Below are positions 4,663 to 26,851 of a stretch of 26,851 bases of DNA, one piece after another. Both the position numbers and the translations under genes were made by a program. The stretch comes from an archaeon (GTDB lineage: Archaea > B1Sed10-29): positions 1 through 26,851 of the forward strand of contig JBMCFZ010000001.1 of NCBI GenBank assembly GCA_048620055.1, read 5' to 3'. Position 1 is the stretch's first letter. Each line of letters begins with the position of its first letter. The notes under the pieces are model-generated. The model saw only the letters and a list, made by a program, of their open reading frames with translations. It ran no database searches and was not told the DNA's origin.

Positions 4663-5367
4663 ATGAATAAAAACCCCGTTAAAATACCTATGATAATTCT
4701 CATAAGCACATTAGTAATCTTATTACTATCTTCTATTGGAATTGGGCAGATAGAATCTAATATAGTGGGTCCAGAAGAAGATTTCGGAGAAATGCCTGGA
4801 TTAAATGATCTTCCTTGCTTTGAAGAAAACGGGCTTTGGTATTGCTACGAAGTATCACCCTCCACTGAAGTGAGATTAGAATTCGAAGAAAATATAGAAT
4901 GTTTTCTTGACGAAGAATCTCTGGATAAATACGAGGAAAAAGGAAATTGTTTTACATCAGTCAAATTCATGGAAGATGTTACCATTAATTCAACTTTAAG
5001 AGAAATACATTCACCACAAGAATACAAAAGAGTAAAAAGAGAAAAAGAATTCAAAAAAAACGATAATATAACCGCTATAGTCTCCCCCGAACAAATAGAT
5101 TATAACAGATGTGGTGAGCCAGAGTTAAATGACACTTTACTAGATTTAACTGAAATTTACAAAGTAGATTGTAATTATACGAATAGAGAATACAGTGCAA
5201 ATATAACCTATTACGGAGAAGGTATCCTTATTCATGAGATGGCTCCTCCAAAAGAAGAATCTTTTAGAATACCTTTATCAAGCTTACCTATATTGATACT
5301 GATAATATTAGTAATAGGAACAGGTGTATGGGTATTTTATCCTAAAATAAAAGATCATATGAAGTAA
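4663..5367 (+). CDS. Hypothetical exported protein with C-terminal membrane anchor
   Basis: N-terminal hydrophobic signal, acidic domain with 6 Cys and several N-x-S/T sequons, C-terminal SSLPI-LILIILVIGTGVWVFY-PKIK. SD-like AGGTG upstream. Confidence 0.75.
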   Translation: MNKNPVKIPMIILISTLVILLLSSIGIGQIESNIVGPEEDFGEMPGLNDLPCFEENGLWYCYEVSPSTEVRLEFEENIECFLDEESLDKYEEKGNCFTSVKFMEDVTINSTLREIHSPQEYKRVKREKEFKKNDNITAIVSPEQIDYNRCGEPELNDTLLDLTEIYKVDCNYTNREYSANITYYGEGILIHEMAPPKEESFRIPLSSLPILILIILVIGTGVWVFYPKIKDHMK

Positions 5368-5420
5368 CAAAAAATTCGAAAGTAAGAAAAATGAAAAACC
5401 ACAAATAAAAATAGAGGAAA

Positions 5421-8400
5421 ATGAAAATGAAGAGAAATTGGAAAACGGGTTGCTTAAAAGGAATTTCACTCGTATTAACCTTAGTTCTAACTCTACATAT
5501 GCTTTCTTTGCCTGTATCAGCTGCTCCTTATAATTCAAATGTATCTGATGAAGATCAAGAAGAATACACTGATGAAGAATTACCTCCTTTGAAAACTGAA
5601 AGTATAAGTGACAGCGTAGAAATAGTTGAATTAGATTGGAAGGAAGTAGAAAGATTATTGGATCAAACGGGAAATGTTACATTCGACGGATTTGGAGATA
5701 AATCTGCTTACGATGAATATAAAGCAAGAGAAGAAGCAGGAATATCAGATACACCAGGAATTAACAATACGGAAAATAAGTTTATTACTACGAATGAAGG
5801 AGAAACAGTAATGCTTTATGATTTACTTGAACATAGAGCAATAGACCCAACTGAAGTACCTCATCTAAGTCATATGGTTACAACAGGACATATGTCATAC
5901 ACTACCTTACTAGAAGAAACAACTAGAATATGTCCAGAATACCCAGATGAAACCTGTGAAACAGGACATCTAAACCCACAGAAAAGAAACGAACTTCAAG
6001 AAGAAATAAATGAAAAAGAAAGAGCTATTAACGAAGCTAGTGAAGTAGCAAGGGACGTCGCCGGACCAATGGGAGAGACTTTAGAGAGCATAACTTATCA
6101 AATGGGGTTCGCTGAATATGAGAATGTCACGGAATTTTTCGAAGGAGAAACAAAAGACTTAGAAGAACTAAAAGCAGAAATAGGAGATGAATCACCTTTA
6201 AACGCAATTCAAAGTAATTATTCCATATCACATCTACAAAGAACAGATTCTACATTACTCTTCCCTCATCATTTAGCTAAATTCACTCAATTCCTAGAAA
6301 GTTTACAACCAGGAGACAGAATGTACTCAGTAGCTCTAGGAATATCAGTAGCTACAAGCCTAGGAAGTGTAGCACAATCAATGAGTGGTCTTAAAATGGC
6401 TAAAAAAGGAACAGATGCAGTAGATAACTTAGATGCAGTGACTAAAAAAGCAGATAAAGCAATAAGCAATATTGAAGCAAAAATGAAGACAGGGGACCTT
6501 ACTCAAGATCAAATGGATGTCTTAAATGCTAAAAAATCTGCACTAAAAGCCTTAAAGAGCAAGGCAAAATCTGCAGATAGTGTAGATGACTTCCAAGATT
6601 CTGTAAAAGGGACAAGAATAGGTGGAGATACCACTAAAGGAAGTCAAGCATCAGAATCCTTTGATGATGCTATTAAAAATATAGAAAACAATAAAGAAAC
6701 CCTTGATAGCTTCGAGGGATTAAATGCTAATGATGAAATAGAGAATTATCAACTCGCAAAAAGACTAGTTAATGCAGAAGATTCTAAACAATACACTTCT
6801 ATACTTAATGATATAGATAGCACTGAAAAAGCTAATGAAGTACAAGATATACTTAAGACCCAAGGAGGTATAAGCGAATTTAATGATGTAACTAAAACTC
6901 TAGGTGGAACTGATGGAGACGAATTAATGAAAGCTTTGGGTAGACATGATGCATATTACGGTGATGTTGGACAATTTATGGGTACTACTATGGACACTAC
7001 AAGTAAGAAAGGTAAATTATTAACAGCTCTGACTGACTTAGGTGTGAGTCGAAGAGCAATAGGAATAAGAGCCCTATCAGGATTTAGAAATAGTGTAAGT
7101 GTATTTCAAGGATCATTAGTAGTTTCATTTATCCCTTTAACTTTCTTTGGACAACCAAAACCAACATTTGAATTAATGACTCTTTCAATGGAAGCAGAGC
7201 CAAATAGAGTAATTGAAGATAAAGATGCTTATTTAGAAATAGCTAGAGCTACAGATAGAGCTTATGGACAAGATTTTTATCCTGCAGGAGTATTTGAAAA
7301 TTTATTGAACTTCTTCAACTTTGATTTAAGTGAAATAACAGGAGAAAATGATGCAGACATAGTTAGAAGAAAAATAGAACAAAACCCAGGGCCTGGGTAC
7401 GTTAAAGTAATAGATCAAGAAACCTCTGCTGAACAATACTCAGAAAAACCAATTAACATGATTTATCCGCAGAGAATAGGTGACGGAACCGGAGAAAAAT
7501 GGATGATCAACAGTATAAATCCAACAATGACAGACTATCAAGCATTTGAACATCCCAAATCATACGTCGAAGGGAATAAAAATTTATTTTCAACATTTAC
7601 TCTGATAATAAAAAACCTGAACTTGGGTGGATTAACTACAGTAGAAGAAGATTGGGCAGAACATAGTCATGATTACCTAGTAGATTACACTCCAACTACT
7701 AAAACAATGGTTTACGGATCAGCGATAGGAGGAATACTAACTGGAATAGCACCAGGAGGAATGTTCACAGGTAGAACAGGAACAGGGGTGCTAAAAGGAG
7801 TTGTAGCAACATTAATGCTAAAAGGATGGGGTTCTTTAGCTCAAGAAGAAGCAGAAAGAATGCAAGATCAAAAATACGGTGAAGTTGTAGACATAGGAGA
7901 AGCTTATAAAGAGGGAGAGCCATGCAGTGCCAAACTTGATGAATTAGAAAGTGATATTCAAGATATGAGAAGATGGATGTGGGTAACAATAATCGGAAAT
8001 ACCGGAGCAGATATAACAAGCATGGCTATAACCAGTGCAGCTACAGCTACAACAGGACCATTTGGACTAGCTGTAACCGCAACTAACATTGGCTTCTCAA
8101 TAGCTAATTACTACTACACAAGAGAATATCAAACCCTAAAAACAGATGGATTAGAAGAAATGAAAGAATGTCAAGAGACAATGTTTGAAGTACTTGCATT
8201 GAAAGCAATGCCAACGGAAGATAAACAATCGGAAGATATGTTAGAACAAATTAAAGGAGATCTAGGGGAAGGATTATCAGGAATACCTGGAATAGAATCA
8301 ATATCACCGGAAACATCAGATGCCCTCAAAAATCTAGGGCCAACATCCTACCAAAATATAATGGCTCTAAGCGGAAAAATAGAAGGAAAAAGCTTAATAA

Positions 8401-9956
8401 ATCTACTTGGATCAGAACTTTACCAAGTTCATTTAGACAGAGAAGCTGACATAAAATGGTTCTTAGAAGAACAACAAAACATAGATTTCTGTTATCAAAC
8501 AGACACAACCATGGAAGAAAGACCAATATTCGAATGTATACAAGCTCAAGGCTACACATTACTAGATCCAGAGGGAAGACCTATAATAGATGCACCTCAA
8601 ACAAAAGGATTCAGATGGGACAATGATAGAGAACTAATGACCATACCACAGAAAGTGATAAATACAAAACAAGAAACTGGAGAACTAATGGAGATAGAAA
8701 GAGACGAAGTAAGGATAGATGATCAAGATACTCAGGAAGCAGTACAGAAATTAACAGGAAATTCATATACCAAAGATATATTTGGGGAACTGCAGACGAT
8801 TAAAACAGAAGAAGCCGTAATATGGCACGATGGGAACACAGCAGTAGCTAGATTCACAGAACCTGTTGGAGGAGAAATAGGAAGAGGAAAAGTCTTAAGA
8901 TTCGATGATGCACACATACAAACGTATAAAGATAACCAAATAGAGATACAAAGTAATGCAGACAATGAAAAACTATTAGACCACACTTTTGAACTTGGAG
9001 AAAACGGGTTCCTAAGTTTCGAAAATGGTAAAATAGTGCCAGGAAGTGGACAACATGAATTAAATATAAATAACCAAACAGCTACTAGGGACTTTGGAGA
9101 ATGGAACCATATAATACTGTATGATTTACTGAGCTTCACCGCTGATAGAGCGGATGATTACGACATAGAAGGACTAGAATATGATGAAGATGGCAATATA
9201 GTTGGATTTGAAATGGGAGGGGACTTCCCGGATGAACATCAAGATCAGATGGATGCATTATTAGAAGAAATGGCTTTCAATGATTTAGTAGGGCCAGATG
9301 GAAGGAGAATGAGAATAGAAGACGGAGAATTAATATATGTTGATGAGACGGGAGAAGAAACAAGATCTAAAATAATAGGGTTTGAAGATGGAAAAATACA
9401 ACTAGAGGATGGTAGAGAACTAGAATTAGATAAAGGTCCTGATGGACAGCCTCAAGCACAATTCTATCGAGATGGAGAACCGGTTGGAGCACCAATACCC
9501 TTACTTAGAGCCAGTGGAGTTGGAGGAATGATGGGATACGATCCACAAACTGGAGAAATATCAATAAGTAATGAATTCCCATTCCAAATGAACCCTCAAT
9601 TCGGAGATATAGGAGCAGGAATGACTAATCCAGGAATGATGATACCTCAACAATCTGAATTTGGAGGAAGACCACCAGAACCAGGAGTAGATTTCCCAAG
9701 AGAAAGAGAACCAGGATTGATAGCAGAACTACCATCAACACCGGGAAGAGAAAGTCAATTAGGAGAATTAGATGAAGATAGTCAAGAAACAGAGATGGAA
9801 CCAAGTGAAACCTCTGATGAAGCAGAGGAAGAAAAAGAAACAGGAACAACTTTACCAATCAATAAAATAGCATTAATCCTATTCATTTTAACAATACTTG
9901 GAGGAGTACTAGCAATAAGAAAGAAAGGAAGGAAGATAAGAGTTAAGAAAAATTAA
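5421..9956 (+). CDS. Giant (1511 aa) exported, C-terminally anchored surface protein with internal Gly/Ala-rich hydrophobic segments
   Basis: Signal peptide ending PVSA-A, acidic body, hydrophobic segments near aa 301-325, 545-578, 763-808 and 852-899, Pro/Glu-rich linker, then TTLPI-NKIALILFILTILGGVLAI-RKKGRK. GAGGA SD upstream. Confidence 0.85.
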   Translation: MKMKRNWKTGCLKGISLVLTLVLTLHMLSLPVSAAPYNSNVSDEDQEEYTDEELPPLKTESISDSVEIVELDWKEVERLLDQTGNVTFDGFGDKSAYDEYKAREEAGISDTPGINNTENKFITTNEGETVMLYDLLEHRAIDPTEVPHLSHMVTTGHMSYTTLLEETTRICPEYPDETCETGHLNPQKRNELQEEINEKERAINEASEVARDVAGPMGETLESITYQMGFAEYENVTEFFEGETKDLEELKAEIGDESPLNAIQSNYSISHLQRTDSTLLFPHHLAKFTQFLESLQPGDRMYSVALGISVATSLGSVAQSMSGLKMAKKGTDAVDNLDAVTKKADKAISNIEAKMKTGDLTQDQMDVLNAKKSALKALKSKAKSADSVDDFQDSVKGTRIGGDTTKGSQASESFDDAIKNIENNKETLDSFEGLNANDEIENYQLAKRLVNAEDSKQYTSILNDIDSTEKANEVQDILKTQGGISEFNDVTKTLGGTDGDELMKALGRHDAYYGDVGQFMGTTMDTTSKKGKLLTALTDLGVSRRAIGIRALSGFRNSVSVFQGSLVVSFIPLTFFGQPKPTFELMTLSMEAEPNRVIEDKDAYLEIARATDRAYGQDFYPAGVFENLLNFFNFDLSEITGENDADIVRRKIEQNPGPGYVKVIDQETSAEQYSEKPINMIYPQRIGDGTGEKWMINSINPTMTDYQAFEHPKSYVEGNKNLFSTFTLIIKNLNLGGLTTVEEDWAEHSHDYLVDYTPTTKTMVYGSAIGGILTGIAPGGMFTGRTGTGVLKGVVATLMLKGWGSLAQEEAERMQDQKYGEVVDIGEAYKEGEPCSAKLDELESDIQDMRRWMWVTIIGNTGADITSMAITSAATATTGPFGLAVTATNIGFSIANYYYTREYQTLKTDGLEEMKECQETMFEVLALKAMPTEDKQSEDMLEQIKGDLGEGLSGIPGIESISPETSDALKNLGPTSYQNIMALSGKIEGKSLINLLGSELYQVHLDREADIKWFLEEQQNIDFCYQTDTTMEERPIFECIQAQGYTLLDPEGRPIIDAPQTKGFRWDNDRELMTIPQKVINTKQETGELMEIERDEVRIDDQDTQEAVQKLTGNSYTKDIFGELQTIKTEEAVIWHDGNTAVARFTEPVGGEIGRGKVLRFDDAHIQTYKDNQIEIQSNADNEKLLDHTFELGENGFLSFENGKIVPGSGQHELNINNQTATRDFGEWNHIILYDLLSFTADRADDYDIEGLEYDEDGNIVGFEMGGDFPDEHQDQMDALLEEMAFNDLVGPDGRRMRIEDGELIYVDETGEETRSKIIGFEDGKIQLEDGRELELDKGPDGQPQAQFYRDGEPVGAPIPLLRASGVGGMMGYDPQTGEISISNEFPFQMNPQFGDIGAGMTNPGMMIPQQSEFGGRPPEPGVDFPREREPGLIAELPSTPGRESQLGELDEDSQETEMEPSETSDEAEEEKETGTTLPINKIALILFILTILGGVLAIRKKGRKIRVKKN

Positions 9957-9966
9957 TTCTCATAAA

Positions 9967-10464
9967 CTAGTAATAGACCTTAAAAACTGCTTCACAACCA
10001 TCATCCAAATTTACTGAAGAAGTATAAGCAACGAAATTTTCTCTGAAGAATTCTTCTTCTACATCTTCTCCCTCGTATTGATAAACATAATCTGAATCTT
10101 CATTGGGATAACAATACGGAGTATCAACAGCACAACCTCCTTCGAAACAGAGGAAAGGATATCTGCTTGGAGAAGAATTGAGTACTTCTCCCCAAATATC
10201 TTCTCCATCAATATAATCAGTTATTTCATTCTCATCACCATCTTCCTCAACTCTATATCTAATATCATTCCAAAATCGGAAATTATTTACACTATGTAAA
10301 GCAACTAACGAATTCCCTGTATACTCTAAGTTATATACAGCACTTATCTGTTGATCTATACCTTGACCATATAATCCAGAGACATAAAACATTAAAGTAG
10401 ATGCAACCGCACATATGAACATGAAGAACAATGCATCCATCACGGCTCCCTGTCCCTTATTCAT
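9967..10464 (-). CDS. Prepilin-like protein with class III signal peptide (minor pilin/pseudopilin)
   Basis: MNKG|QGAVMDALFFMFICAVASTLMFYV. SD GAGGTG (10476-10471) 6 nt before ATG 10464 favours this start over the track GTG at 10473. Confidence 0.75.
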   Translation of the reverse strand: MNKGQGAVMDALFFMFICAVASTLMFYVSGLYGQGIDQQISAVYNLEYTGNSLVALHSVNNFRFWNDIRYRVEEDGDENEITDYIDGEDIWGEVLNSSPSRYPFLCFEGGCAVDTPYCYPNEDSDYVYQYEGEDVEEEFFRENFVAYTSSVNLDDGCEAVFKVYY

Positions 10465-10500
10465 TTCCAGCACCTCTTGTCAAAAATCTAAGTTTCTTAA

Positions 10501-10932
10501 TCATCTCACATCCCACACACATACTCTAAGAGTTTCTAATTCTATGTTATCTCCTTCTTTCCTTGAAACTAAATAAGAAAAGTAAAGAGATTCTTCGCCA
10601 CATCCTTTATTAGGATCATCAGAATTAAAAGGACTTCCTTCTATCTCATCTCCCCCGTAATCTGCATTGAAAGCTAAATCATTATTTCTAGCTATAGATT
10701 TTGCTTCGGGTACATCTACTAACTTTTTAGAATCATACTCTATTATAGAGTCTCCAACTATTGCTCTACTTACATCTAAACCACCTTGCATTAACCTAAC
10801 ATCTCTTTGTTTAGTGTTAAAAGTTCTCATTGCAAACGTTAATCCCGTGAAGAAAAGAGTTAAAGCTAACATTATAGCTATTAATGAAGGCAAGTCATCT
10901 CCTATTGGTCCTATAAATCCTTTATTTTTCAT
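10501..10932 (-). CDS. Prepilin-like protein with class III signal peptide
   Basis: MKNKG|FIGPIGDDLPSLIAIMLALTLFFTGLTFA, with an acidic C-terminal domain containing a Cys pair. Confidence 0.75.
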   Translation of the reverse strand: MKNKGFIGPIGDDLPSLIAIMLALTLFFTGLTFAMRTFNTKQRDVRLMQGGLDVSRAIVGDSIIEYDSKKLVDVPEAKSIARNNDLAFNADYGGDEIEGSPFNSDDPNKGCGEESLYFSYLVSRKEGDNIELETLRVCVWDVR

Positions 10933-10967
10933 AATATTTCCCTATTCATTTTTATCCATACATTAAT

Positions 10968-11468
10968 TTAATTTCTTCTTCCACCGTAGATTCTAAATAA
11001 ATTTCCTTCTTTACGTACGTATACTATACCGTAAGCAGAAGAATTCAATATTAAATTATCTTCACCATTATCATCTTCACCTAATTCTATTTCGTAGTCT
11101 TCAAACGTGAAAGATGAAGCGGCTATATAACTATCAATATCTTTACCAGGACTATGTAAATCTTCAGCAATAGCTATATAAACTTCATCGCTTGATTCTG
11201 TCCAGATATGCATAGTATAAGGTATTGACCTATCTGAATCCTCTGGAATCTCCTCAGGCATAACTACAAATCTCGTTCCTGTTTCAGCTCTTATTCCAAG
11301 CAGTGCCTGTATTGAATCTTTTACTCTTAAGACTAAGTGCTGAGAAGAATCAGCAACAGCCCTTTGTTGAACCAAACCTGTAAAAGAAAGGATAACTGCA
11401 AAAGTCATTGTTAAGAAAATCAACATCACGACTTTAGTCATTAACCACGTTGCTATCCCTCTCTTCAT
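10968..11468 (-). CDS. Prepilin-like protein with class III signal peptide
   Basis: MKRG|IATWLMTKVVMLIFLTMTFAVILSF. SD AGGTGA upstream. Confidence 0.75.
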   Translation of the reverse strand: MKRGIATWLMTKVVMLIFLTMTFAVILSFTGLVQQRAVADSSQHLVLRVKDSIQALLGIRAETGTRFVVMPEEIPEDSDRSIPYTMHIWTESSDEVYIAIAEDLHSPGKDIDSYIAASSFTFEDYEIELGEDDNGEDNLILNSSAYGIVYVRKEGNLFRIYGGRRN

Positions 11469-11490
11469 TTATTCACCTAATTATATCTTA

Positions 11491-12057
11491 TTAGTTACCA
11501 AGTCTCTTTATAACTATTCTATCACTACTCTCCTTCGTAACTTGAACTGAGAAAGTTCCTTTACCCCATCCACAATCTTCATTAGAATTAAATTCCTCAT
11601 CATAAATATCTGTATGATCATCTTCCCTACAACTTCCTATATTTTCCATATCTACGGTTATTCCTTCCGGAATATCAATGTAACTTCTTGCAGCTATGTA
11701 CCTATTTTCTCTTTGGTCAACAGATACTGCTACAGCCATTATACAGTCTCTTTTACCAATATTATCTTCACAGGCATCTGGAGGACCATCAACAAGCCTT
11801 ATAGATTCAAAACCCACATCACACCCAGGCGGAACAGAAGTATCAAGAGTTATAGCTGGAGGTCTAGTTCCTTCTCCTCCCTGGTAAGCTTGTTCCATTA
11901 CCCTACTAAGTCTATCTAAACCCGCTCTTACTTTGTGATCGTACTGTGTCGCACATACTTGTCTGTAACTGTAGAAACCAATAGTTACAACAAAAGTCAG
12001 TATAGTGACTCCTAATAAAAGTTCTACGGGCATTGATTCTTGACCTTTATTTTTCAT
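11491..12057 (-). CDS. Prepilin-like protein with class III signal peptide
   Basis: MKNKG|QESMPVELLLGVTILTFVVTIGFYSY, with a Cys-rich acidic domain. Confidence 0.78.
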   Translation of the reverse strand: MKNKGQESMPVELLLGVTILTFVVTIGFYSYRQVCATQYDHKVRAGLDRLSRVMEQAYQGGEGTRPPAITLDTSVPPGCDVGFESIRLVDGPPDACEDNIGKRDCIMAVAVSVDQRENRYIAARSYIDIPEGITVDMENIGSCREDDHTDIYDEEFNSNEDCGWGKGTFSVQVTKESSDRIVIKRLGN

Positions 12058-12079
12058 GATTTAACAAAGAATCTCTATG

Positions 12080-12088
12080 TATAAAAAA
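12080..12088 (-). promoter_or_regulatory. Putative internal TATA box for a leaderless transcript starting at ATG 12057
   Basis: Minus strand TTTTTTATA, with TTTATA 23-28 nt upstream of ATG 12057. No SD precedes that ATG. Confidence 0.45.
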
Positions 12089-12118
12089 CTGACTACCAAA
12101 TAAAGATATTAACACATT

Positions 12119-12125
12119 AAAAAAA
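12119..12125 (-). terminator. Putative oligo-T archaeal terminator after the 53-aa mini-pilin
   Basis: T7 run on the minus strand immediately after the TAA stop at 12128-12126. Confidence 0.35.
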
Positions 12126-12287
12126 TTAAAGGAAAAAGGGAGCTATTAAAGAGAGTCCGTACTCCGCGTATCTAGCTCCTTCCTGGAACATTGGCTTTAT
12201 TATAGCGAATAAAAGAATTGCAGCTATCGCTATCACTATCATTAAGTATATCGGTGTCCAGCCAACTTCTCCAGATTCATCCATCAT
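12126..12287 (-). CDS. 53-aa prepilin-like membrane peptide (not in the ORF track)
   Basis: Hand translation gives MMDESG|EVGWTPIYLMIVIAIAAILLFAIIKPMFQEGARYAEYGLSLIAPFFL*. It fills the gap in a co-oriented prepilin array, 13 nt after the stop of 12301..12726. Confidence 0.75.
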   Translation of the reverse strand: MMDESGEVGWTPIYLMIVIAIAAILLFAIIKPMFQEGARYAEYGLSLIAPFFL

Positions 12288-12300
12288 TTAAATCATTCTT

Positions 12301-12726: not shown

Positions 12727-12793
12727 TCATATATCACCTCGGTTTTCGTTATTATAAATATACTTGGAAAGTTTATAAATCTTTTCATAAAAT

Positions 12794-18207: not shown

Positions 18208-19220
18208 AGAAAAAATGCTCTATGAGAAATAATAATAGAGAAGAATATGAAGATAAAGGAAAGAAAGGATTTAGTTTATTTACCCCTCTAGTCGGTACCG
18301 CAGTAATAATCATAGCTATTTTAGTCTCAATAACCATGATTCAAAATAACTTAAAGATAAGTGAAGGGATAAGTGATTCTTATTCTGCTTCCGGACAAAG
18401 TATTGGTTCTCAAACCATACAATCAGCCTCAACTGGTTTTATAATAGACCAAATAGAGAAATATACAAAAAAACAATTAGAAGGAGGTAGAGGAGACTAC
18501 ATAACCATTGAAGAATGTGAAGATGGAGATGAATGTAATTCTGAGTTAAAAGAAGAACTTAATGAATGGGGAGCGCTGAAAAGAGAATTGCAAATAAGAT
18601 GGTTTATAGGGATGTTGGATAGAGTAAGAACAGTTACCGATTACGAAATAGTTGGAGGAGATGACTGCGAAAAGGCCTGTGAAAAACTAGATGACCAAGG
18701 AGTAGATGTGCCTACTAGATGTTACGATACTTTTGAAGATTGTGCAGATGCTGTTTCAGTACAGGGGATTGGGATAGATATCGTGTCTACAGAATACACT
18801 GATGAAGGTAGTTTAGAAGTAAGACTGAATACAAATAAAATTAGAGAAAGTGAACACTACAGGGATGCGTTTGAAATAAGATTAAAAGATGAAGGAGAGG
18901 AAACAGATATGACTATTATAATGGTGCCTTCAGAAGCTACTTACACAACAGCTAAATTATCCGATCATATAAGCAAAACAGGAGAAGCATTTGATTACTT
19001 AAAAGAAAATGCGGAGGATAAGGATCTCGATATAATTTGTAATGAGATAAAAGCAGATATTCTCGACAACGAGTATGAATACGATGAATTGACATTGATA
19101 AATGGCACTGAAGGAGAAGTAGCTCTTCAAATCAAATGGAAAAACATAGACATAGATACCAATCTTCATTTAGAGTACAAAAGTGCAGAATATGTGGAGG
19201 GACAAGAAGAAAGTTGTTAA
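18204..19220 (+). CDS. Large prepilin-like protein with class III signal peptide
   Basis: KGKKG|FSLFTPLVGTAVIIIAILVSITMI followed by an acidic Cys-containing domain. ATGA overlap with the sortase stop. Confidence 0.75.
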   Translation: MKKKCSMRNNNREEYEDKGKKGFSLFTPLVGTAVIIIAILVSITMIQNNLKISEGISDSYSASGQSIGSQTIQSASTGFIIDQIEKYTKKQLEGGRGDYITIEECEDGDECNSELKEELNEWGALKRELQIRWFIGMLDRVRTVTDYEIVGGDDCEKACEKLDDQGVDVPTRCYDTFEDCADAVSVQGIGIDIVSTEYTDEGSLEVRLNTNKIRESEHYRDAFEIRLKDEGEETDMTIIMVPSEATYTTAKLSDHISKTGEAFDYLKENAEDKDLDIICNEIKADILDNEYEYDELTLINGTEGEVALQIKWKNIDIDTNLHLEYKSAEYVEGQEESC

Positions 19221-19276
19221 TTCAAAGAAAGTATTTAGATAAAAAATTACTGAATAAATTACTACTGATGAAAGAA

Positions 19277-19288
19277 AAAGTATTTAAA
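19277..19288 (+). promoter_or_regulatory. Putative BRE/TATA promoter of the 1625-aa gene
   Basis: AAAGTATTTAAA with TTTAAA at 19283-19288. AAAGTATTTA is also directly repeated at 19228-19237. Confidence 0.35.
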
Positions 19289-19295
19289 AAAGAAG

Positions 19296-22200
19296 ATGTT
19301 AATAGTAGTCAGGGAAAATGGAGGAATCAATATCAGTCTAAAAAATTTCTACTACAAAATAGAAGACAAGTGGTTTGCAGGAATAGATAAGCTAGATAAG
19401 AAAGGATTTCCTGCTTACAAAATGATAGACCCGTTGGAAAAAAGGGGGATACCAAGCCTACCAGTATTTATTGCTTTTCTAATAATAATCTCCTACATTT
19501 TATTTCCATATATGCCTTGGGTAGAACCTGAACAAACACCAGAACCAATACCAGAAGAGGTAACAGTCTTCATAACAGTATCAAATGAACTTGAAAAAAT
19601 AGAGGACGCAAATGTAGAAGCATTGAAAGAAGGAGAATTTAAAGATTCAGGTACAACTAATTTTGAAGGAGAAGCAAGTTTAACGTTAGAAAGAGGAAAA
19701 ACCTATAAAATAACCGCAAGCAAAGAAGAATGTACTGAGCAAGAGATGACATATAAAGTTCCAGAAGAAGAAGAATCTCCTACGGAAGATATTTCACTGG
19801 AATGTGACTCTAAACTAGAAGAAGGAGAAACAGAAATATGTTTTACTCCTGAGGTATCTGAACCAATTAAATACGAAAAATTAGGCGTAAGAGACTTAGT
19901 ATTAGAAGATGGGGAATGTGAAGCTGAAGAATCTGGGAAATGTTTCATGTCACTAGATGAAAATGTTAGTTACAGTTTTGAAACCGATAAATACATCTCA
20001 GAAAGTACGTATACAACAAGTCAATTAGAGGATTACGAAGATGAAGAATGTATACCAATGCTCGAAAAAGAAGATGACGATCCAAATGATGATATAGAGT
20101 CAGAAGTAGGAGAAGAAATAATATGGGTAAAAGATGAAGAAGGGAATTCCTTAGGAGGAAAAACAGTTCAACTAGTTTATCCAAATGAAACTAATACACA
20201 TATAGTAGAGGGAAAAACAAGCGAATCAGAAGGATCTGTAGGTAGAGTAACACTTAAACCACCATTAGAAGAAGAATACAAGATAAAGGTCCTCTCAGGA
20301 GAAGAGACTTCATCCAAATTAACTGAAGAAATTTATGAAGTAACAAAAAGTGCAGAAACCCGTCATGTTACAGTGGGAAAGCACGAGGAAACAGATATAG
20401 AAGTAGTAAGTAGTAGAGACGCAGCACCTCTGGAAGGAACCCATATAAGAATATTCGATGATGGGGAAGAAGTATATGAAAGTCAAACCAATTCAAAAGG
20501 AAAAGCCGATCCAATGCCAAATCTACAGGGACACACATACGAAGCAACCTTATTTAAACAAGGATACGCTGCGAAAGAGATAGAGATAACAGGAGGAGAA
20601 TCAAGAGCTTTTGAACTAGATGGACTTGAAGACCACGAAATGGCTGATGTAGAGATAACTGCGAAAACAAATACTGAAACTCAGGAAAGAGTACAAGAAG
20701 CTAAAGTAGATCTAAAATATGAAGATGGAGGACAAATGGGCTACCCGACAAAAGAAACCAATGACTTAGGAGAAGTGAAGTTCCCGAAAGTCCCAGAAGG
20801 AGATTACTGTGCTGAATTAACCTACGAAGGAAAAACATACCCATGTGAAAACCACTCTATAACGGTAAGGCCAGAAGAAGAATCAGTTGCAACTAGAACA
20901 ATTTTAATAGATCCTATAATGAGATTATTAAGAGTAAGAATTACTAGAGAAGATGAAGGAATAGAAGGAGTAACAATAAAAGGAAAAGATAAATTCGGAC
21001 AAACATATACACCAAAAGAAACTGATACAGGAGGAATGACCTCATTCAGAGTTCCTGACGGTAGATTAGTATCTGTTAGTGCAGAAGCAACAGTAGAGGG
21101 AGAAGAATTCAGACCAACAGAAGACGTAAGGATGGATAACGATGAAACAATTGAATTTGAGCTTGACGAACCAATAGATAGGGACGTAGTATTCAACCAA
21201 CTCACTGAAAACAAAGGCGACCAATATGAAGAGGGAGAAAGGATAAATCCAAATACCTGGTACGATGCTGAATTCCAAATGGATCTATCCAACGTAATGG
21301 AGGAAAGATGGAATGAAGTAGAATACAACATATGGACTGAAGATGATATTAACATATACAAATCACCAGAAGTCAATTCATGGACAGGATGGGGAGCAAA
21401 CTCAGAAGACCTACCAGGAAAAAATCAGGAAATAACAATTGAAGGAAACTACGACAAAGAGGATACGGAACCGATATTTAATGTTCCAATAGTGGCATTG
21501 CCTAAAGACTCTTCAGATGAAAAGATAGAATTGAATTTCCAAGCAAATTGGAAACACGAAGAAAGCGATACTTACATTGAAACAGAAGAAGAAACAATTG
21601 AATTTGAACTAAACCACGGAGAAGGGTCAAGACAAGGGCCATTCTATGTTGACAGAACAATAAGCAGAGAAGAACCAGTAGATCCAGAACAACCTGTTAC
21701 AGCATTCTGGAATATAAGTTTAGTAGAAGGGGTTTTTGACGGAGAAATGGTATTTGAACCTGAATTCAACAACACTGAGTTTGATCCAGTAGAACTTGAA
21801 AAACTAGAGAAAACTAATCCGGAAGGAGAGAAAACTGATTTAACTGAAGAAGTGGCTCTAAGAGAAGATTATCTAGCATTCAACTTTACAGAAGAAAACC
21901 AATTGGAAGAAGGGGATCACTTAGAACTCCAAATGATAAACACTCCAAAATACCCTTCATCAGATGTAAAGATTCAAGGAAAAGCCGGTGAAATTGACCT
22001 AGGACACATAAAGTATGAAACCGGTGGAAAAATATCAACGACAACTACACTATCAGAAGGAAGTAGATACACGCTGAGCGACCATGTGGAAATGACTATA
22101 AAGGACAAGGAAAGAGGATCTGTGTTAGAGGGAAATGAATTGGTAAATATAAAGAGACATGAAGATAGTAAGATAACCGGTTCACTACAAGGTTGTAACG

Positions 22201-24173
22201 AGATACCTCTATCAAAAGCTGAAATAGCTCAAGATGAAGAAGGAAGAAATGTATTGAGAGTAGATTTAGACAGCGATTGCCATCTAAAAGAGGGAGAAAT
22301 AGATGTAAGCATAGCTGGAGGAGATATAAAGGAAGATACATCTTCTTTTGAAATTGAACCAACATTTACGATTCAAAGAATAGGTCAAACCGGAATAGTT
22401 CCTGGAGAAACTTGCCCAATAGACTTAACAAAACAAGGAACAGAAGAAGTATCAATAGGTGCTCCAGGAGAAGAATCAATAGGAATAGCTAGAAGCGAAT
22501 GTGAAGAAGAAAGACCTTCAGAAATGGGAATAAGTTATGCAGAAGCAGCAGGGATAGAACCGGAAAACCTAGAGGTAGATGAAGAATCAGTAGAGCTCGA
22601 ATCAGCTGATAAAGATCAAATAAGCAATGAAATATTAAGAAGATTTGTAGATATAGACGTAAAGCAAGATAGAATAACCTTAGAACCCGAAGCATTTGAA
22701 GGAGGAGAAGGATATGATTTCCAAGTAAAATTCACGATGAAAGGGACAAACAACGACATAACAGACGAAGAAACCATCACCACTGACATATCTCTTTCAC
22801 AACCAATGAGAGAACTAGGAGGAAACAGATTTAGAAGAAACCTGGTCCAAAGTTATGATGCGGAAGAATACAGATGCAACGTTAGATACTGTAATCTAGA
22901 TCAAATATTTGAATATGGAATAAAAGATAGTCCAACAACAAGATCAGAAGTACTAATGGTGGAAATGGGAGGAATAACCCCCTCAATTGCAGCTAGCATA
23001 CTAACAGATACATTAGAAGGTATGGAAGAATTGGAAGATGAAGATTGGGAGGTAAGAACAGGAGAACCAGAAGACACCATAACGTCTGAAAATGAATTTA
23101 TAATAGATGGAAATCCAGAAAACATGCCTGATGTGGGAAGAAACGAAATGGTGGTAGCGAATGAAACAGATGACGATGGAAACACTCAATACCACATATG
23201 GTTCAATCACCTAGACGATGAAAATCCTCTTCTCGTGGAAAATATTGCACTATGGATGCCTCACCAACAAATAAGTTACGGAGAATTAAATAAAACAAAC
23301 GTACTTGAAAAACAGATGGAAACACCGATATACATAGATGAAACGATAGAAGAGGAAGTATATCGAGAAGAAATAGAAAAAGATATTCAAGAAGCTCTTG
23401 GAGGAATGTGGGGAGTAGACAAGGAGAACTTCCCAGTAAAAGAACAAGAAGAAGAATTTGAAGGATATGAACATGGAATACACATAGGACTCTGTCCTGA
23501 AGGAGAACCAGAACATGAAAACTGCCAAAGATTAGAAGATAAAAATTATTCATTAGGGAAACCAGCTATTTTCAGAGGAGGGTTTGAATCAAGAACATAT
23601 ATCCACGCTAGAAACGAAGGAGATCTGCTCAACCTAACGGAAAGATTTGAACTGGCATTTGGAGAAGCTAGATCTGGATTAGCACTCGAGATGATGAACA
23701 AAGATGATCCAACATTAGGAGGACTGACATTAGCACCTGAAGAAATAAAGTACTACTGCTGGTCTCAAGGAGCACCAAACTGTCCAGGAGGAGAAGAAAC
23801 ACTAAACGCACTGGAACAACTAGGAGAAACAATGCTAGGAGCACCTGCAGTAGAACTAGAACAAGAAAAGGATTTCGAAGAGATATTAATAGAAGATGAA
23901 AAAGAAGTGGACTTCATAATAACATCGTCGGATAATACTAAAGACCTGAGAAGAAGTGGTCAATTAGGCTCAAACCCCTACATAAGTGGATCAGGAGGAT
24001 ATATTGACATCTTTGGAAAAGGAGTAAGGTCAAAAAGAGTAAGACTGCCACCAGGAGGAATATTATATCAACCAGACGGACCAACAACACTACTAGTACC
24101 AGAAGACAACGGAGCAAATGCACCAGATTTACTACAAGAACTTCACTTCCAACTAACAGTAGGAGAAGAATAA
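19296..24173 (+). CDS. Giant (about 1610-1625 aa) N-terminally anchored surface protein with carboxypeptidase-regulatory-like (Cna-B/prealbumin-like) beta-sandwich repeats
   Basis: TM segment LPVFIAFLIIISYILF, then about 5 repeats of the pattern V..A.V.......G.T(N/D)..G......L..G.Y...A.K.GY. Highly acidic with paired Cys. The true start may be ATC 19332 (see findings). Confidence 0.85.
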   Translation: MLIVVRENGGINISLKNFYYKIEDKWFAGIDKLDKKGFPAYKMIDPLEKRGIPSLPVFIAFLIIISYILFPYMPWVEPEQTPEPIPEEVTVFITVSNELEKIEDANVEALKEGEFKDSGTTNFEGEASLTLERGKTYKITASKEECTEQEMTYKVPEEEESPTEDISLECDSKLEEGETEICFTPEVSEPIKYEKLGVRDLVLEDGECEAEESGKCFMSLDENVSYSFETDKYISESTYTTSQLEDYEDEECIPMLEKEDDDPNDDIESEVGEEIIWVKDEEGNSLGGKTVQLVYPNETNTHIVEGKTSESEGSVGRVTLKPPLEEEYKIKVLSGEETSSKLTEEIYEVTKSAETRHVTVGKHEETDIEVVSSRDAAPLEGTHIRIFDDGEEVYESQTNSKGKADPMPNLQGHTYEATLFKQGYAAKEIEITGGESRAFELDGLEDHEMADVEITAKTNTETQERVQEAKVDLKYEDGGQMGYPTKETNDLGEVKFPKVPEGDYCAELTYEGKTYPCENHSITVRPEEESVATRTILIDPIMRLLRVRITREDEGIEGVTIKGKDKFGQTYTPKETDTGGMTSFRVPDGRLVSVSAEATVEGEEFRPTEDVRMDNDETIEFELDEPIDRDVVFNQLTENKGDQYEEGERINPNTWYDAEFQMDLSNVMEERWNEVEYNIWTEDDINIYKSPEVNSWTGWGANSEDLPGKNQEITIEGNYDKEDTEPIFNVPIVALPKDSSDEKIELNFQANWKHEESDTYIETEEETIEFELNHGEGSRQGPFYVDRTISREEPVDPEQPVTAFWNISLVEGVFDGEMVFEPEFNNTEFDPVELEKLEKTNPEGEKTDLTEEVALREDYLAFNFTEENQLEEGDHLELQMINTPKYPSSDVKIQGKAGEIDLGHIKYETGGKISTTTTLSEGSRYTLSDHVEMTIKDKERGSVLEGNELVNIKRHEDSKITGSLQGCNEIPLSKAEIAQDEEGRNVLRVDLDSDCHLKEGEIDVSIAGGDIKEDTSSFEIEPTFTIQRIGQTGIVPGETCPIDLTKQGTEEVSIGAPGEESIGIARSECEEERPSEMGISYAEAAGIEPENLEVDEESVELESADKDQISNEILRRFVDIDVKQDRITLEPEAFEGGEGYDFQVKFTMKGTNNDITDEETITTDISLSQPMRELGGNRFRRNLVQSYDAEEYRCNVRYCNLDQIFEYGIKDSPTTRSEVLMVEMGGITPSIAASILTDTLEGMEELEDEDWEVRTGEPEDTITSENEFIIDGNPENMPDVGRNEMVVANETDDDGNTQYHIWFNHLDDENPLLVENIALWMPHQQISYGELNKTNVLEKQMETPIYIDETIEEEVYREEIEKDIQEALGGMWGVDKENFPVKEQEEEFEGYEHGIHIGLCPEGEPEHENCQRLEDKNYSLGKPAIFRGGFESRTYIHARNEGDLLNLTERFELAFGEARSGLALEMMNKDDPTLGGLTLAPEEIKYYCWSQGAPNCPGGEETLNALEQLGETMLGAPAVELEQEKDFEEILIEDEKEVDFIITSSDNTKDLRRSGQLGSNPYISGSGGYIDIFGKGVRSKRVRLPPGGILYQPDGPTTLLVPEDNGANAPDLLQELHFQLTVGEE

Positions 24174-24219
24174 AACATAAAAATGCTGAAAAGATTACAT
24201 AATAAATAAGAGGGAAAAA

Positions 24220-25965
24220 ATGGAAAAAAATCGAAAAAACTTGATAAAGAAAACTCTGCTACTACAAACAGCAGTAATAATCCTAGCTATAATGATGTTA
24301 AGTATCCCAACTTATAGAGCAAAAAGACTAAATCAAGTAACCCTGCCTGATACTACTATATACGATGTAGCTAGTGGGGAAACAGCGCCAGAAGGTATGA
24401 ACTTACAAATATTCTGTGAAGGGCCGAATGAATATGGATTCTGGTTTGCAGGGTGTGATGACCCAGGTGCAAGTAGTGGAGAAGGAATAACAGATAGTAA
24501 CGGAATAATAGAAAAATTAGATGGAGAATACGAAGGAAAAGTATATACTGAAGGATGTAGACATGGGTACTATGGAAACTGTATGCTTGCAGTAAACACT
24601 AATGAAGATATAAAAGATCTAGATCCTGATCAAGCTGAAATAGAGGGAGCAAGCGGTAGATGGAGAGGAACAGTATCCAAAGAAGATTTAATACGGTACG
24701 AAAACTGGGAAGATAACGATCCAGAACAATACTTCCAGGGATTGGAAGGAACGGATAGCTATGACCAATCAACATGGGCAACAGTAGCAGGATGGACAGC
24801 GATGATAATAATAATAATAGTACTCACTATAATAACAGGAGGGCTTTTTGCAAAAGTAGGAGCCTTAATGGCAGGACAAACAATAGGAGCAGGGCTTTTA
24901 AAAACTGGCTTAGCATATTTAGGAGTGAAGGCCTTTGGTATAGGAGTTGGAATTGGAGTAATAGTAACCTGGCTTACAGGTGCCGCCAACTACCTAGGTT
25001 GCCAAATATCAGAATTGTGGGATGACGAAGCATGCGTGCTCGAAAGAAAATTTAAAAATACAGTAATAGGGATAGAGCCGACAGGACCAGAAGAAACCTA
25101 CGAAGAAACAACAACCACAAAAGTAGACAACGTGCAAGTAGAAGCTGACAATGTAGTTACAGATGTAAAAGTAATGACAAGGCATCAATTAAATGAATAC
25201 TTAATAGGACAAGGACTGAACCAAGAAGTAGAAGACACCAGCAGTCAAGAGATAATAAGAGTGATAGAAGGCCCAGAATATCCTAACTGCAGGATAGCAC
25301 CCAACTATGGATATATAGATGGGGATACAACAAGGCCGCTAGAAGGAGAACTAAGAATAGAAAACGCTACTGCAAATGAGTCAATGATACTTAACAATGA
25401 AACCTACAAATTCACAGTGGAAGACAAACCAGGATCAAGAAACTTCGAGATAACAGCACAGAAACTCACTGAAAACACAAAAAACATCTTAGAAGAAATG
25501 CCTGAGTCAGTAGGAATAAATCAAGAGGGATACCAAGGACCATGTGTATCAAGCTACTCAAGCACACCATTAGAATCAAGGATAATGAATTTTGCAATGG
25601 AACCCGCAAGCCCACTAAAATCAGGAGATGTATACACACCAAGTCCGATATATGAGGGAGAAAGAGCAGGATACATAGAAGAAATAAATGAAGAACTAAG
25701 ATGTGCACCAGGAGACGAATTAGTGTCAGCAACAGAAACTCCTGATAGCAAACTGTTAAGAGATAAAGTTCTAGAGGAAGCTGATATAGATAATTACTGT
25801 GAAGTAAGTCCAGAGAATTTCGCTGAAAGAATGGTTCCATGCGGAGAAGGACAAGCAGCACCAGTAGGATACATGTGCGCAGAAAAAGGAGAAAAAACCT
25901 GTCCACTAGGATCACTCTATAATCCAGCCACAGAAAAATGTATGATATCACAGGATATGGGTTAA
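24220..25965 (+). CDS. Exported Cys-rich protein with an internal 76-aa Gly-rich hydrophobic segment
   Basis: N-terminal signal or anchor, 14 Cys by hand count, hydrophobic W186-C261 segment, C-terminal CPLGSLYNPATEKC module. Confidence 0.8.
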   Translation: MEKNRKNLIKKTLLLQTAVIILAIMMLSIPTYRAKRLNQVTLPDTTIYDVASGETAPEGMNLQIFCEGPNEYGFWFAGCDDPGASSGEGITDSNGIIEKLDGEYEGKVYTEGCRHGYYGNCMLAVNTNEDIKDLDPDQAEIEGASGRWRGTVSKEDLIRYENWEDNDPEQYFQGLEGTDSYDQSTWATVAGWTAMIIIIIVLTIITGGLFAKVGALMAGQTIGAGLLKTGLAYLGVKAFGIGVGIGVIVTWLTGAANYLGCQISELWDDEACVLERKFKNTVIGIEPTGPEETYEETTTTKVDNVQVEADNVVTDVKVMTRHQLNEYLIGQGLNQEVEDTSSQEIIRVIEGPEYPNCRIAPNYGYIDGDTTRPLEGELRIENATANESMILNNETYKFTVEDKPGSRNFEITAQKLTENTKNILEEMPESVGINQEGYQGPCVSSYSSTPLESRIMNFAMEPASPLKSGDVYTPSPIYEGERAGYIEEINEELRCAPGDELVSATETPDSKLLRDKVLEEADIDNYCEVSPENFAERMVPCGEGQAAPVGYMCAEKGEKTCPLGSLYNPATEKCMISQDMG

Positions 25966-25992
25966 AAACCAATAAACATAAAGGAGTATACC

Positions 25993-26851
25993 ATGGGTTT
26001 AAGAGAGATATACTACAGAGTAGAAGACAAATGGTTTGAAACAATAGATTCCTTAGACAAGAGAGGAATACCATCTTACAAAGCAATTGATCCATTAGAA
26101 AGAAGAGGAATACCAAGCCTACCAGTATACATAGCTATATTAATAATTCTCTTATACTTCGCAGTGCCAGGGTTAATCGGAGTAATACAACCAGAAGGAC
26201 CAGTAGAGCCAGAAGATCCGGATGAAATACAAGTGCCTATAGAAGTAATAGATACTGATTCTATGCAAATGTTAGAAGGAGCAGAAATAAAAGCGATGCT
26301 AGAAGAAGAAATAAGAGAAGAACAAATAACTAACGAGGAAGGATTAGCTAACTTGATGCTATTTTCAGGAGAAACATATAATATAACCGCAAGTAAAGAA
26401 GGATGTACCAATGACAGCACTACAATAAGATCTCAAACAGATAGAGAAAATCCGGAAATTCTTAAAATAGACTGCGAATACTTACTAGCGGAAGATGAAG
26501 TAGAAATATGCTTCGATGAATCGGTAGGAAAAGTAGAATATATACCAGTACAGTCACCAGGAATCGTTAGAACAGATTTAAAAGAAGAATGCGGGACAGG
26601 AGAAGAAGGATGTAGATTTAGACCTGAAAAGGACCTTGAATACAAATTCAAATCTCTAAATTCTGAATATGAAAGTGAAAGAAGATACACTTCGGAAGAA
26701 TTAGAGGAAAAATCACCTTCAGAAGAATGCATACCAATGAAAAAAATAAGTGAAGATGAAAACGAATCAGATGATGACGATAACGATGAGATTGACAAAA
26801 AAAAGGGAAAAATTATATACATAGTAGAAAGCGAAGAAGATGAACATAGAC
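25993..26851 (+). CDS. Paralog of the 1625-aa surface protein, 3'-truncated by the window edge (not in the ORF track)
   Basis: SD AAGGAG plus ATG 25993 and 286 stop-free codons to the window end. MGLREIYYRVEDKWFETIDSLDKRGIPSYKAIDPLERRGIPSLPVYIAIL aligns with 19296..24173, as do TYNITASKEGC, EICF and EECIPM. Confidence 0.88.
   Translation, partial: MGLREIYYRVEDKWFETIDSLDKRGIPSYKAIDPLERRGIPSLPVYIAILIILLYFAVPGLIGVIQPEGPVEPEDPDEIQVPIEVIDTDSMQMLEGAEIKAMLEEEIREEQITNEEGLANLMLFSGETYNITASKEGCTNDSTTIRSQTDRENPEILKIDCEYLLAEDEVEICFDESVGKVEYIPVQSPGIVRTDLKEECGTGEEGCRFRPEKDLEYKFKSLNSEYESERRYTSEELEEKSPSEECIPMKKISEDENESDDDDNDEIDKKKGKIIYIVESEEDEHR

Follow-up and report, generated by a model that had tools for sequence, protein, structure and literature searches.

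A conserved type IV filament-type gene cluster with an archaeosortase and giant surface proteins in DPANN archaea

A major part of archaeal diversity is made up of DPANN archaea, most of them uncultured, and few of the proteins with which they hold on to other cells are known. What kind of surface machine, then, is encoded by the gene cluster that occupies nearly all of one 26,851-nucleotide (nt) stretch of DPANN DNA? This stretch, referred to here as the window, comprises positions 1-26,851 (forward strand) of contig JBMCFZ010000001.1 in assembly GCA_048620055.1. The genome to which it belongs (657 kb in 123 contigs, 62% complete) was recovered from metagenomes of a hypersaline lake and a microbial mat, and its GTDB phylum contains only 31 species. 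The best explanation, to which we give a probability of roughly 0.6, is that these genes specify a distinct machine of the type IV filament (T4F) kind in DPANN archaea, whose giant adhesins are sortase-anchored and pilin-linked. Judged from its genes, the cluster belongs to the T4F superfamily and to the exosortase family, and to no characterised subtype of either. An initial annotation of the region had listed an assembly ATPase, a platform protein, seven tandem pilin-like genes and an eighth one, a sortase-family gene and giant proteins, and all of these are present where it placed them. Its view that the region belongs to a DPANN archaeon and specifies a machine of the type IV filament kind is likewise supported; the genome has 657 kb, and metagenome-assembled genomes (MAGs) that carry homologues of the ATPase are labelled Diapherotrites/Iainarchaeota, Micrarchaeota or DPANN.

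Layout and conservation of the cluster

The conserved cluster spans positions 2507-26851, and thus begins to the left of position 4663, where the initial annotation had started. According to the calling of open reading frames (ORFs), nine minus-strand genes, predicted to be co-transcribed, follow one another between 17520 and 9967 in the order g16-g15-g14-g13-g12b-g12-g11-g10-g9, and they either overlap or are 13-68 nt apart. On the plus strand, g17 begins about 100 nt from the start of the ATPase gene g16 and is followed by g18, g19, g20 and g21. The third group, g6-g7-g8, lies on the plus strand from 4113, and its terminus is 10 nt from the end of g9. Gene g5 is oriented divergently from this group, and further left are the housekeeping genes PAC2, DUF473 and flavin reductase. 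No Pfam or NCBIfam family matches g7, g8, g18, g20 or the small exported pilin-like proteins; the orthologues of the pilin-like proteins in the complete genome AR10 are likewise unmatched.

Orthologues of g16 with 50-92% identity are present in 327 species-representative stretches, of which 80 loci were analysed, including those of AR10 and Ca. Iainarchaeum andersonii. A word-index search for homologues gave only 20 relatives for g10 and 7 for g8; instead, the ORFs of the 80 loci were searched with iterated hidden Markov models (HMMs) built from the window proteins, and the ratios below cover loci with enough flank. The platform gene adjoins the ATPase gene in 62 of 68 loci; 50 of 66 carry the sortase, 35 of 45 have giant A, and 39 of 45 contain the five-gene block g12b-g12-g11-g10-g9. 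The order g14-g13-g12b-g12-g11-g10-g9 is kept across loci, and where loci are rearranged, the modules ATPase-platform-g14-g13 (in some cases with the sortase) and g12b-g12-g11-g10-g9 stay intact. Three distant homologues (57-60% ATPase identity) show the same map, with a giant, a g18-like gene and an exosortase on one side and, on the other, the ATPase, the platform, about seven small genes (one of 46-50 amino acids, aa), and beyond them a 200-aa gene in convergent orientation and a giant of 1650 aa. As a test, the initial annotation had proposed to follow the set of sortase, prepilins and giants across genomes; these genes stay together with that of the ATPase in dozens of species, and the loss of synteny that it had named as the contrary outcome was not encountered.

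A profile of the g10 family (A4) has matches in 179 of the 201 genomes that were sampled from AR10's phylum (labelled Iainarchaeota at NCBI), nearly always one per genome, and in 24 of 30 genomes of a small DPANN phylum that is probably the window's own. In the phylum of the window, 28 of 31 genomes have an orthologue of g17, among them all 11 that are of high quality. Since the cluster is conserved and near-universal in at least two DPANN phyla, the observation is stronger than first stated. The g10 profile matches only 4 of 51 genomes of a Micrarchaeota-type phylum, and in Micrarchaeota-type genomes the ATPase and the pilin block are apart. Two such loci (L053 and L079) have beside the ATPase only a 380-400 aa gene with a giant A leader, and their g10-type gene is about 200 kb off or on another contig; that is, the cluster is split. 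Insertions are seen as well. In one relative (L005/L006, 14870-17076), a radical SAM gene and an acetyltransferase gene separate the first pilin-like genes from the others, and in L019, an Iainarchaeum-labelled MAG, small toxin-antitoxin-like pairs (PIN-like and others) are found in the pilin block and beside giant B (15987-16858 and 19675-20322).

Motor, pilin-like proteins, archaeosortase and giants

The motor consists of an ATPase and a platform protein. Gene g16 (15241-17520, minus strand) encodes a 759-aa secretion/assembly ATPase of the PilB/FlaI/TadA superfamily (PF00437, 67.4 bits against a cut-off of 24.9), with long extensions at both its N- and C-terminus. Its placement is based on model scores and on solved structures, the nearest being A. 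fulgidus GspE (1.4e-27), CpaF (2e-21) and FlaI (2.5e-17). The protein scores far below the cut-off of every subfamily model compared: FlaI of the archaellum (122 bits against 550), TadA/CpaF of the Tad/Flp pilus (TIGR03819, 114.6 against 373), BasE of the bindosome (NF053672, 57 against 1000) and the type II secretion (T2SS) ATPase GspE (39 against 630). Pfam and NCBIfam scans of the cluster proteins gave no match to archaellin, FlaH or FlaF/G, and Pfam scans gave none to the secretin family. These scores place the gene set in no characterised archaeal pilus system. Gene g15 (13200-15284, minus strand), which overlaps g16 by 44 nt, encodes the putative platform, a single fused, polytopic TadC/FlaJ-like protein of 694 aa recognised by multiple membrane helices and weak similarity to T2SSF (22.4 bits against a cut-off of 25.2, E 1.3e-4) and ArlJ (E 4.9e-5). 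Some Diapherotrites copies of the g16-type ATPase (P0068, P0073) reach 1279-1302 aa and contain intein/homing endonuclease domains (PF14528, PF14890).

The seven tandem pilin-like genes (9967-13186, minus strand) each form their own orthologous family, found in 51-68 related loci. An N-terminus of [KR][GA] followed by a hydrophobic helix is conserved in these seven and in the eighth family, g18 (27-68 loci across all eight families), and the eight N-termini fit archaeal class III signal peptides, with cleavage predicted after this motif. None of the eight families has Glu at +5; this absence, reported by the initial annotation for the prepilins of the window, holds across orthologues. All are single-copy in the window genome.

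Closest to the motor are g14 (12794-13186, minus strand; NKG-QSGEIFKLLIAAAF) and its paralogue g13 (12301-12726, minus strand; MKG-QEFSTFKLLIAAVVA), the latter with a class III signal of the classic archaeal type and a head that is small and rich in Cys; both were assigned from the N-termini of orthologues, which in this family read KGQ(A/E)FxxFKLLIAAVVA. Next comes g12b (12126-12287, minus strand), a 53-aa "headless" pilin-like protein that is found in 57 loci at a length of 42-57 aa. Its motif can be written as [KR][GA](Q/D)xxW(T/S)xIYL...IKPMF or as G-(D/E/Q)V(G/N/S)WTPIYL...IKPMFQ, with Lys or Arg at -2 in the orthologues. The remaining block comprises g12 (11491-12057, minus strand; KGQE(S/E)xP(V/F/I)ELL or, in a narrower form, KGQE(E/S)AP(F/I)ELL, 64 loci), g11 (10968-11468, minus strand; KRG-IATWLMTKVVMLIFL in the window and KG(I/L)xxW(L/I)MSK or MLGF(T/I)LSK in the family, 52 loci), g10 (10501-10932, minus strand), in which a near-invariant KGF(I/L)GP(I/L)GDD(L/F)P precedes the hydrophobic helix, and g9 (9967-10473, minus strand; KGQ(G/A)A(V/I)xDALFF), which is always the last gene of the block in its 51 loci. 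The eighth protein, g18 (18204-19220, plus strand), is larger (338 aa) and begins with a bacterial-looking KKG-FSLFTPLVG. Its family (KGF(S/T)(L/V)FTP(L/M)VG; 257-700 aa) is always co-directional with the sortase and giant A in the 27 loci where it occurs.

The ESM Atlas model of g10 (predicted local distance difference test, pLDDT, 0.71) consists of an N-terminal helix and an alpha/beta head. Its look-alikes are archaeal hypothetical (pilin-like) clusters, including ones from Microcaldota and Iainarchaeota and one DUF7287 cluster, and this predicted likeness is a lead rather than proof of a pilin fold. DUF7287 was rejected as the family of g10; its model matches another pilin-like gene, on contig C7 at another locus.

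A single A24 prepilin peptidase was detected in the window genome (contig C4:6936-7271; PF01478, 58.9 bits), and it sits outside the cluster in another pilus locus. That locus (C4, 1-13716) is a separate, Epd-like one. Besides the A24 peptidase, it has genes for an ATPase of 567 aa and for two platform proteins of 377 and 304 aa, as well as some ten small pilin-like genes whose products show the customary Glu at +5. It resembles "system 1", the Epd type, which a 2026 census assigns to many DPANN (PMC13705601). Further pilus loci in the genome also have ordinary pilins with Glu at +5. The presence of ordinary pilus loci in the same genome suggests that the cluster in the window is specialised.

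The Epd-type type IV pilus (T4P) of Methanococcus maripaludis (EpdA-L/EpdE and EppA) shares with this cluster an ATPase of the PilB/FlaI family, a platform that resembles TadC, a number of minor pilin-like genes whose products have Gln at +1, and a very short headless major pilin, for which g12b is the candidate here (PMC13705601). However, Epd has two platform genes and its own peptidase, whereas the cluster has one fused 694-aa platform and a 759-aa ATPase, lacks any Pfam or NCBIfam pilin match, and contains in addition an archaeosortase and two families of giants.

The archaeosortase is encoded by g17 (17620-18207, plus strand; the ORF is open from 17512), a minimal member of the archaeosortase/exosortase transpeptidase family (TIGR04178, 39.3 bits against a cut-off of 23), whose start is likely the TTG at 17620. 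Cys120, Arg162 and His182, together with Glu125 and Asn159, are invariant in 60 orthologues, and the active site of the predicted transpeptidase is, by these residues, intact. The protein fails the cut-offs of the subfamily models ArtB (34 against 150), ArtD (25 against 125) and pacearchaeosortase (16 against 80); ArtA and ArtC were not listed. No domain of a Gram-positive sortase (class A-F) was found in g17, for which the Pfam scan lists only Exosortase_EpsH. The "sortase" of the initial annotation is, therefore, an archaeosortase/exosortase and not a class A-F enzyme, while the coupling to the eighth pilin-like gene that it described stands: g17 overlaps g18 by ATGA, and g18 is translationally coupled to it. 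That g17 represents a new archaeosortase subfamily built into a pilus locus is a testable proposal. A second archaeosortase-family gene is present in the window genome (contig C31:4918-5697; TIGR04178, 50.7 bits; best subfamily match XrtH-like, 56 against 86), and a check of nine relatives gave exactly two genes of this family in each.

The candidate substrate of g17 is giant B, the 1511-aa product of g8 (5421-9956, plus strand), which has a Sec signal peptide, a helical N-terminal half, a hairpin and a beta-rich C-terminal domain and ends with LPSTP, then LPIN, a membrane helix and a basic tail. The family is present in at least 14 loci, and an iterated HMM ties in Iainarchaeota copies that follow a small membrane gene. 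Apart from the window and its closest relative, which are spaced otherwise, every full-length giant B examined has LP(W/S/G)(T/V)P a few residues before the membrane helix and basic tail, and six Iainarchaeota C-termini have (F/L)NLPS(L/M)PE, with VPTLPKE in one, in the same context. A coding NLPS[LM]PE pattern marks giant B alone in each of five genomes; an extra match in AR10 spans a TGA stop, and a reversed control gave none. When seven giant B tails were compared with the curated NCBIfam sorting-domain models (PGF-, PEF-, VPXXXP-, Loki-, LPXTG and others), none reached the cut-off; the best scores were Loki-CTERM at 13 against 19.9 and LPXTG_anchor at 15.0 against 15.9, and three of the seven tails had no score at all. 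Because the signal is unmatched by curated models and occurs once per genome, giant B is a likely dedicated substrate of the cluster archaeosortase, and LPxxP(E)-CTERM is a candidate for a new sorting signal that is borne by a single substrate in each genome. An arrangement of this sort is classic for an exosortase paired with a substrate of its own. Contigs C50 (1459-3618) and C88 (1003-2952) encode exported proteins of 719 and 649 aa with a Pro-containing motif (TPVIPT..., ITPTS...), a membrane helix and a basic tail, which may be substrates of one of the two archaeosortases.

ArtA anchors the S-layer glycoprotein of Haloferax. The ArtA/PGF-CTERM system of Haloferax volcanii and the ArtB/VPXXXP-CTERM system share with the cluster the exosortase-family signature, a Cys/Arg/His-type active site and a substrate with a short Pro-containing motif, a membrane helix and a basic tail, and ArtB is the best subfamily match (34 bits). 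The cluster differs in that g17 fails the subfamily cut-offs, LPxxP(E) is unmatched, the enzyme is encoded inside a pilus cluster and there is seemingly a single substrate per genome.

The structure of giant B was modelled in parts. An AlphaFold2 (AF2) model of residues 540-1440, from 17 sequences, has a mean pLDDT of 62.7, with the C-terminal domain (about 980-1400) at 75-93; a Foldseek search with it returned only uncharacterised archaeal relatives and generic beta-repeat proteins (template modelling score below 0.1). The model of residues 37-545 (mean pLDDT 43) was not used, and an ESM Atlas search with g8 gave no usable match. Residues 835-917 form a long helical hairpin in the model (pLDDT 50-67). 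Cys835 and Cys917, which bracket it, are invariant in all 17 giant B sequences, and in each the 66-95 residues between this pair form polar arms around an uncharged centre that is rich in Gly/Ala/Ser/Thr and contains a Pro/Gly turn; comparable segments are present in AR10 and L107. The conserved hairpin is real as a sequence feature; its insertion into a membrane is a hypothesis, and its hydropathy (0.4-2.0) is weak. The initial annotation had described two proteins with Gly-rich hydrophobic segments. For g8, the segment is conserved and weakly hydrophobic; the second, g20, is instead a polytopic, lineage-specific protein (below).

The other giant, giant A, is encoded by g19 (19296-24173, plus strand; 1625 aa), with a leader ending in G-IPSLP, one membrane helix and CarboxypepD_reg/Ig-like repeats (PF13620, E 9e-12). 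A second paralogue, g21 (25993-26850, plus strand), is cut by the window end and is 41% identical to g19 over 285 aa (E 8e-52), in agreement with the paralogous giants of the initial annotation. The loci have at least two highly divergent giant A paralogues each, of 1400-2900 aa, with variable C-termini that lack an anchor. The cytoplasmic leader of about 45 residues is conserved: YxxxEDKW(F/Y)xxLDxLDxKG(I/V)PxYxxxDPLExxG(I/V)P(S/A)(L/F)P. Its profile matches 1048 protein cluster representatives, always at residues 1-75 and mostly in proteins of 1500-3100 aa, and by this measure the leader defines a family of at least 1000 clusters of predicted giant surface proteins. Cleavage of the prepilin type could take place at the Gly that precedes IPSLP, but Ala or His is frequent at -2. 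An Atlas search with g19 gave only adhesin-type leads (Ig, DUF11, SpaA), all below 0.9. The end of the leader, [IV]P[SA][LF]P (window 19410-19440), closely resembles the LPS[LT]P of giant B (window 9850-9870, and the C-terminus of the L099 giant B); each of these motifs lies before a helix, and the two should face opposite sides of the membrane.

Proposed mechanism and competing readings

In the proposed mechanism, the A24 peptidase would trim the [KR][GA] leaders, and the ATPase and platform would polymerise the pilin-like subunits into a shaft formed by headless, 40-residue g12b, possibly also by g13/g14. The g12-g11-g10-g9 block, which moves together, would be a minor-pilin priming or tip complex, and g18, perhaps with giant A via its G-IPSLP helix, would connect the filament, or its base, with the giant adhesins. 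Cleavage of giant B at LPxxP(E) by the archaeosortase would leave it covalently anchored at the cell surface, in the way that ArtA handles PGF-CTERM proteins. Taken as a whole, the machine would probably serve adhesion to a partner cell or surface. The cluster probably builds the main attachment organelle of these tiny-genome archaea, and from their lifestyle we infer contact with a host.

Several findings weigh against such a filament machine. The T2SSF score of the platform is under the Pfam cut-off. The pilin status of the eight families derives from N-terminal motifs, with no Pfam or NCBIfam match in any of them, and a fold lead exists for g10 alone. In the window and in its closest relative, L010, an acidic insert places LPSTP about 55 residues before the membrane helix of giant B, with LP(I/L)N beside the helix. 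A predicted complex of g17 and the C-terminal 76 residues of g8 reached a score of 0.11, the mark being 0.34, which speaks neither for nor against the pair. Among RNA sequencing runs, none was found that contains the locus. The second archaeosortase of the window genome and of the nine relatives is a possible enzyme for giant B. Finally, near-universal conservation could fit a housekeeping role in the envelope equally well.

Of three rivals, the strongest is a pseudopilus, followed in order by a part of the envelope and by a penetration device. In the first, an improbable reading that nevertheless stands ahead of the other two, the pilin-like proteins would act as a short piston or scaffold that places giants in the S-layer or pushes them through it, as in the T2SS or the Sulfolobus Bas system. 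The initial annotation had favoured a T2SS-like or pseudopilus apparatus over a pilus; no positive sign of one emerged, and a real filament is suggested by the headless pilin-like gene, conserved at 42-57 aa. A pseudopilus would be in keeping with a set of seven to eight different pilin-like proteins in fixed stoichiometric order, with no tandem expansion of a major pilin and no Glu at +5, and with giants that are constant partners of the cluster; moreover, giant A, with a leader ending in Gly before a hydrophobic helix, could be a substrate like the Bas-dependent binding proteins. Against this, the BasE and GspE scores are far under their cut-offs, the headless 40-aa subunit of 57 loci resembles major pilins of the Flp/EpdE type, the giant A leader often has Ala or His at -2, a poor context for cleavage of the PibD type, and giant B bears an ordinary Sec signal peptide.

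The two known systems nearest to a pseudopilus differ from the cluster in content. The Sulfolobus bindosome (BasEF-BasABC) has a T4P-like ATPase, a platform and pilin-like proteins and places non-filament surface proteins; in addition to the BasE score (57 against 1000), its sugar-binding proteins are absent here, and giants and a sortase are absent from Bas. Bacterial minor-pilin sets of T4aP and T2SS (FimU-PilVWX with PilY1; GspH-I-J-K) likewise combine one motor, one platform and at least four minor pilins with an associated large non-pilin or pilin-like adhesin. However, the cluster has no secretin, PilM-N-O-P or retraction ATPase, its signals are of the archaeal class III kind, and homology between its minor pilin-like proteins and bacterial minor pilins was not detected, so that the likeness is organisational only.

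In the second rival, which we consider more improbable still, the cluster would serve biogenesis of the cell envelope, with giants as S-layer proteins or anchoring stalks, the archaeosortase as their anchoring enzyme and the pilin-like set as an envelope scaffold. The near-universal, single-copy marker in AR10's phylum and in the small DPANN phylum is consistent with this. The same holds for the S-layer domain S_layer_N (PF05123), which has no match in g8, g19, g20 or the window genome as a whole and was not found in four of five relatives either; the S-layer protein of these lineages is therefore still to be assigned. The weight of that missing gene is limited by the 62% completeness of the genome, however. 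In addition, the divergent, length-variable giant A paralogues (1400-2900 aa) are typical of adhesins, and the helical half and odd hydrophobic hairpin of giant B are unlike a lattice-type architecture. The S-layer protein known from Micrarchaeota is a different one, of the S_layer_N type, and its anchoring is an open question.

The third rival, in which the filament motor presents giant B to a host and its disulfide-clamped Gly/Ala-rich hairpin inserts into the host membrane, a form of the penetration and membrane insertion that the initial annotation had raised, is the least favoured: the Cys pair and uncharged turn kept in 17 of 17 giant Bs (and similar in AR10 and L107), the AF2 helical hairpin and the alpha-pore-forming toxin parts YaxB, XaxA and AhlC among its matches are in keeping with it, but in a VIA-align comparison generic helical hairpins dominate, with ESCRT-III hairpins, designed bundles and the toxin arms all at Z ~8.5 (a range that the tool rates as a common helix arrangement), the model confidence is moderate (pLDDT 50-67), the hydropathy is low, and positive support was not obtained. 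Its widest form, in which the cluster would be the symbiont-side contact organelle of many DPANN and the hairpin of the sortase-anchored giant, entering the partner membrane, a protein route to the cytoplasmic bridges seen by cryo-electron tomography (cryo-ET), is a similarly long shot; in the ARM-1 symbiont the intercellular tubes are host-derived (PMC11329633). Cryo-ET of cultured Micrarchaeota-type symbionts has revealed thin filaments, remodelling of the contact site, a barrel-shaped complex in the symbiont's envelope and nanotubes of host origin (PMC11329633, PMC8975820).

The T4F machine with anchored giants remains the preferred reading, and loci of this general kind have been noticed before. 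The nearest prior notice, on the parts of its text that were compared, is a 2019 essay on T4P "dark matter" islands of DPANN (Makarova, Wolf, Koonin 2019, PMC6393860), which shares with the cluster FlaI and TadC, signal-peptide proteins that do not resemble known pilins and "specific surface proteins"; those parts are generic and name no archaeosortase, sorting signal, eight-family pilin set or giant families. A 2016 census of archaeal type IV pili mentions neither exosortases nor DPANN, and our literature search found no paper that links an archaeosortase with a pilus locus. According to the 2026 (October) census of T4F, ordered loci are rare in DPANN, pilins are scattered and system identity is mostly ambiguous (PMC13705601). 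For one system, the cluster runs opposite to this picture: it is an ordered, single-copy, 25-kb locus that occurs in about nine in ten of the genomes sampled from AR10's phylum and also in a second DPANN phylum, and no current model recognises any of its eight pilin-like families. The putative new archaeosortase subfamily, the candidate LPxxP(E)-CTERM signal and the giant A leader family provide handles on DPANN contact sites.

Neighbouring genes

Gene g5 (2507-3979, minus strand) encodes a membrane protein with a charged linker and a C-terminal zinc ribbon of four Cys pairs. The ribbon is 39% identical (E 5e-16) to that of a gene beside the pilin block of AR10, and g5-type neighbours also occur in L038, L056 and L088. 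The Glu/Lys-rich linker between the membrane domain and the ribbon is about 320 residues long; in AR10 the membrane and ribbon parts are two adjacent ORFs.

The first gene of the g6-g7-g8 operon, g6 (4113-4643, plus strand), encodes a small membrane protein with about four membrane helices by hydropathy. A membrane protein of 142-180 aa precedes giant B in five loci (L016, L019, L038, L050 and L056); its sequence similarity to g6 is non-significant, and g6 is a positional analogue only. The exported 234-aa protein g7 (4663-5367, plus strand) has a signal peptide, a C-terminal membrane helix and a basic tail. Its orthologues adjoin giant B in six loci and are confined to nearer relatives.

Gene g20 (24220-25965, plus strand) encodes a 581-aa polytopic membrane protein with an N-terminal anchor and a strongly hydrophobic internal segment at residues 182-264; hydropathy values for its hydrophobic helices are 2.56 and 1.95. 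An orthologue was found in one relative only, L010, and by this distribution g20 is lineage-specific and no conserved part of the cluster. At the far left of the window (2-610, plus strand), the contig edge cuts another T2SSF-type platform gene (PF00482, E 3.4e-14), which points to a further pilus-like locus immediately upstream of the window.

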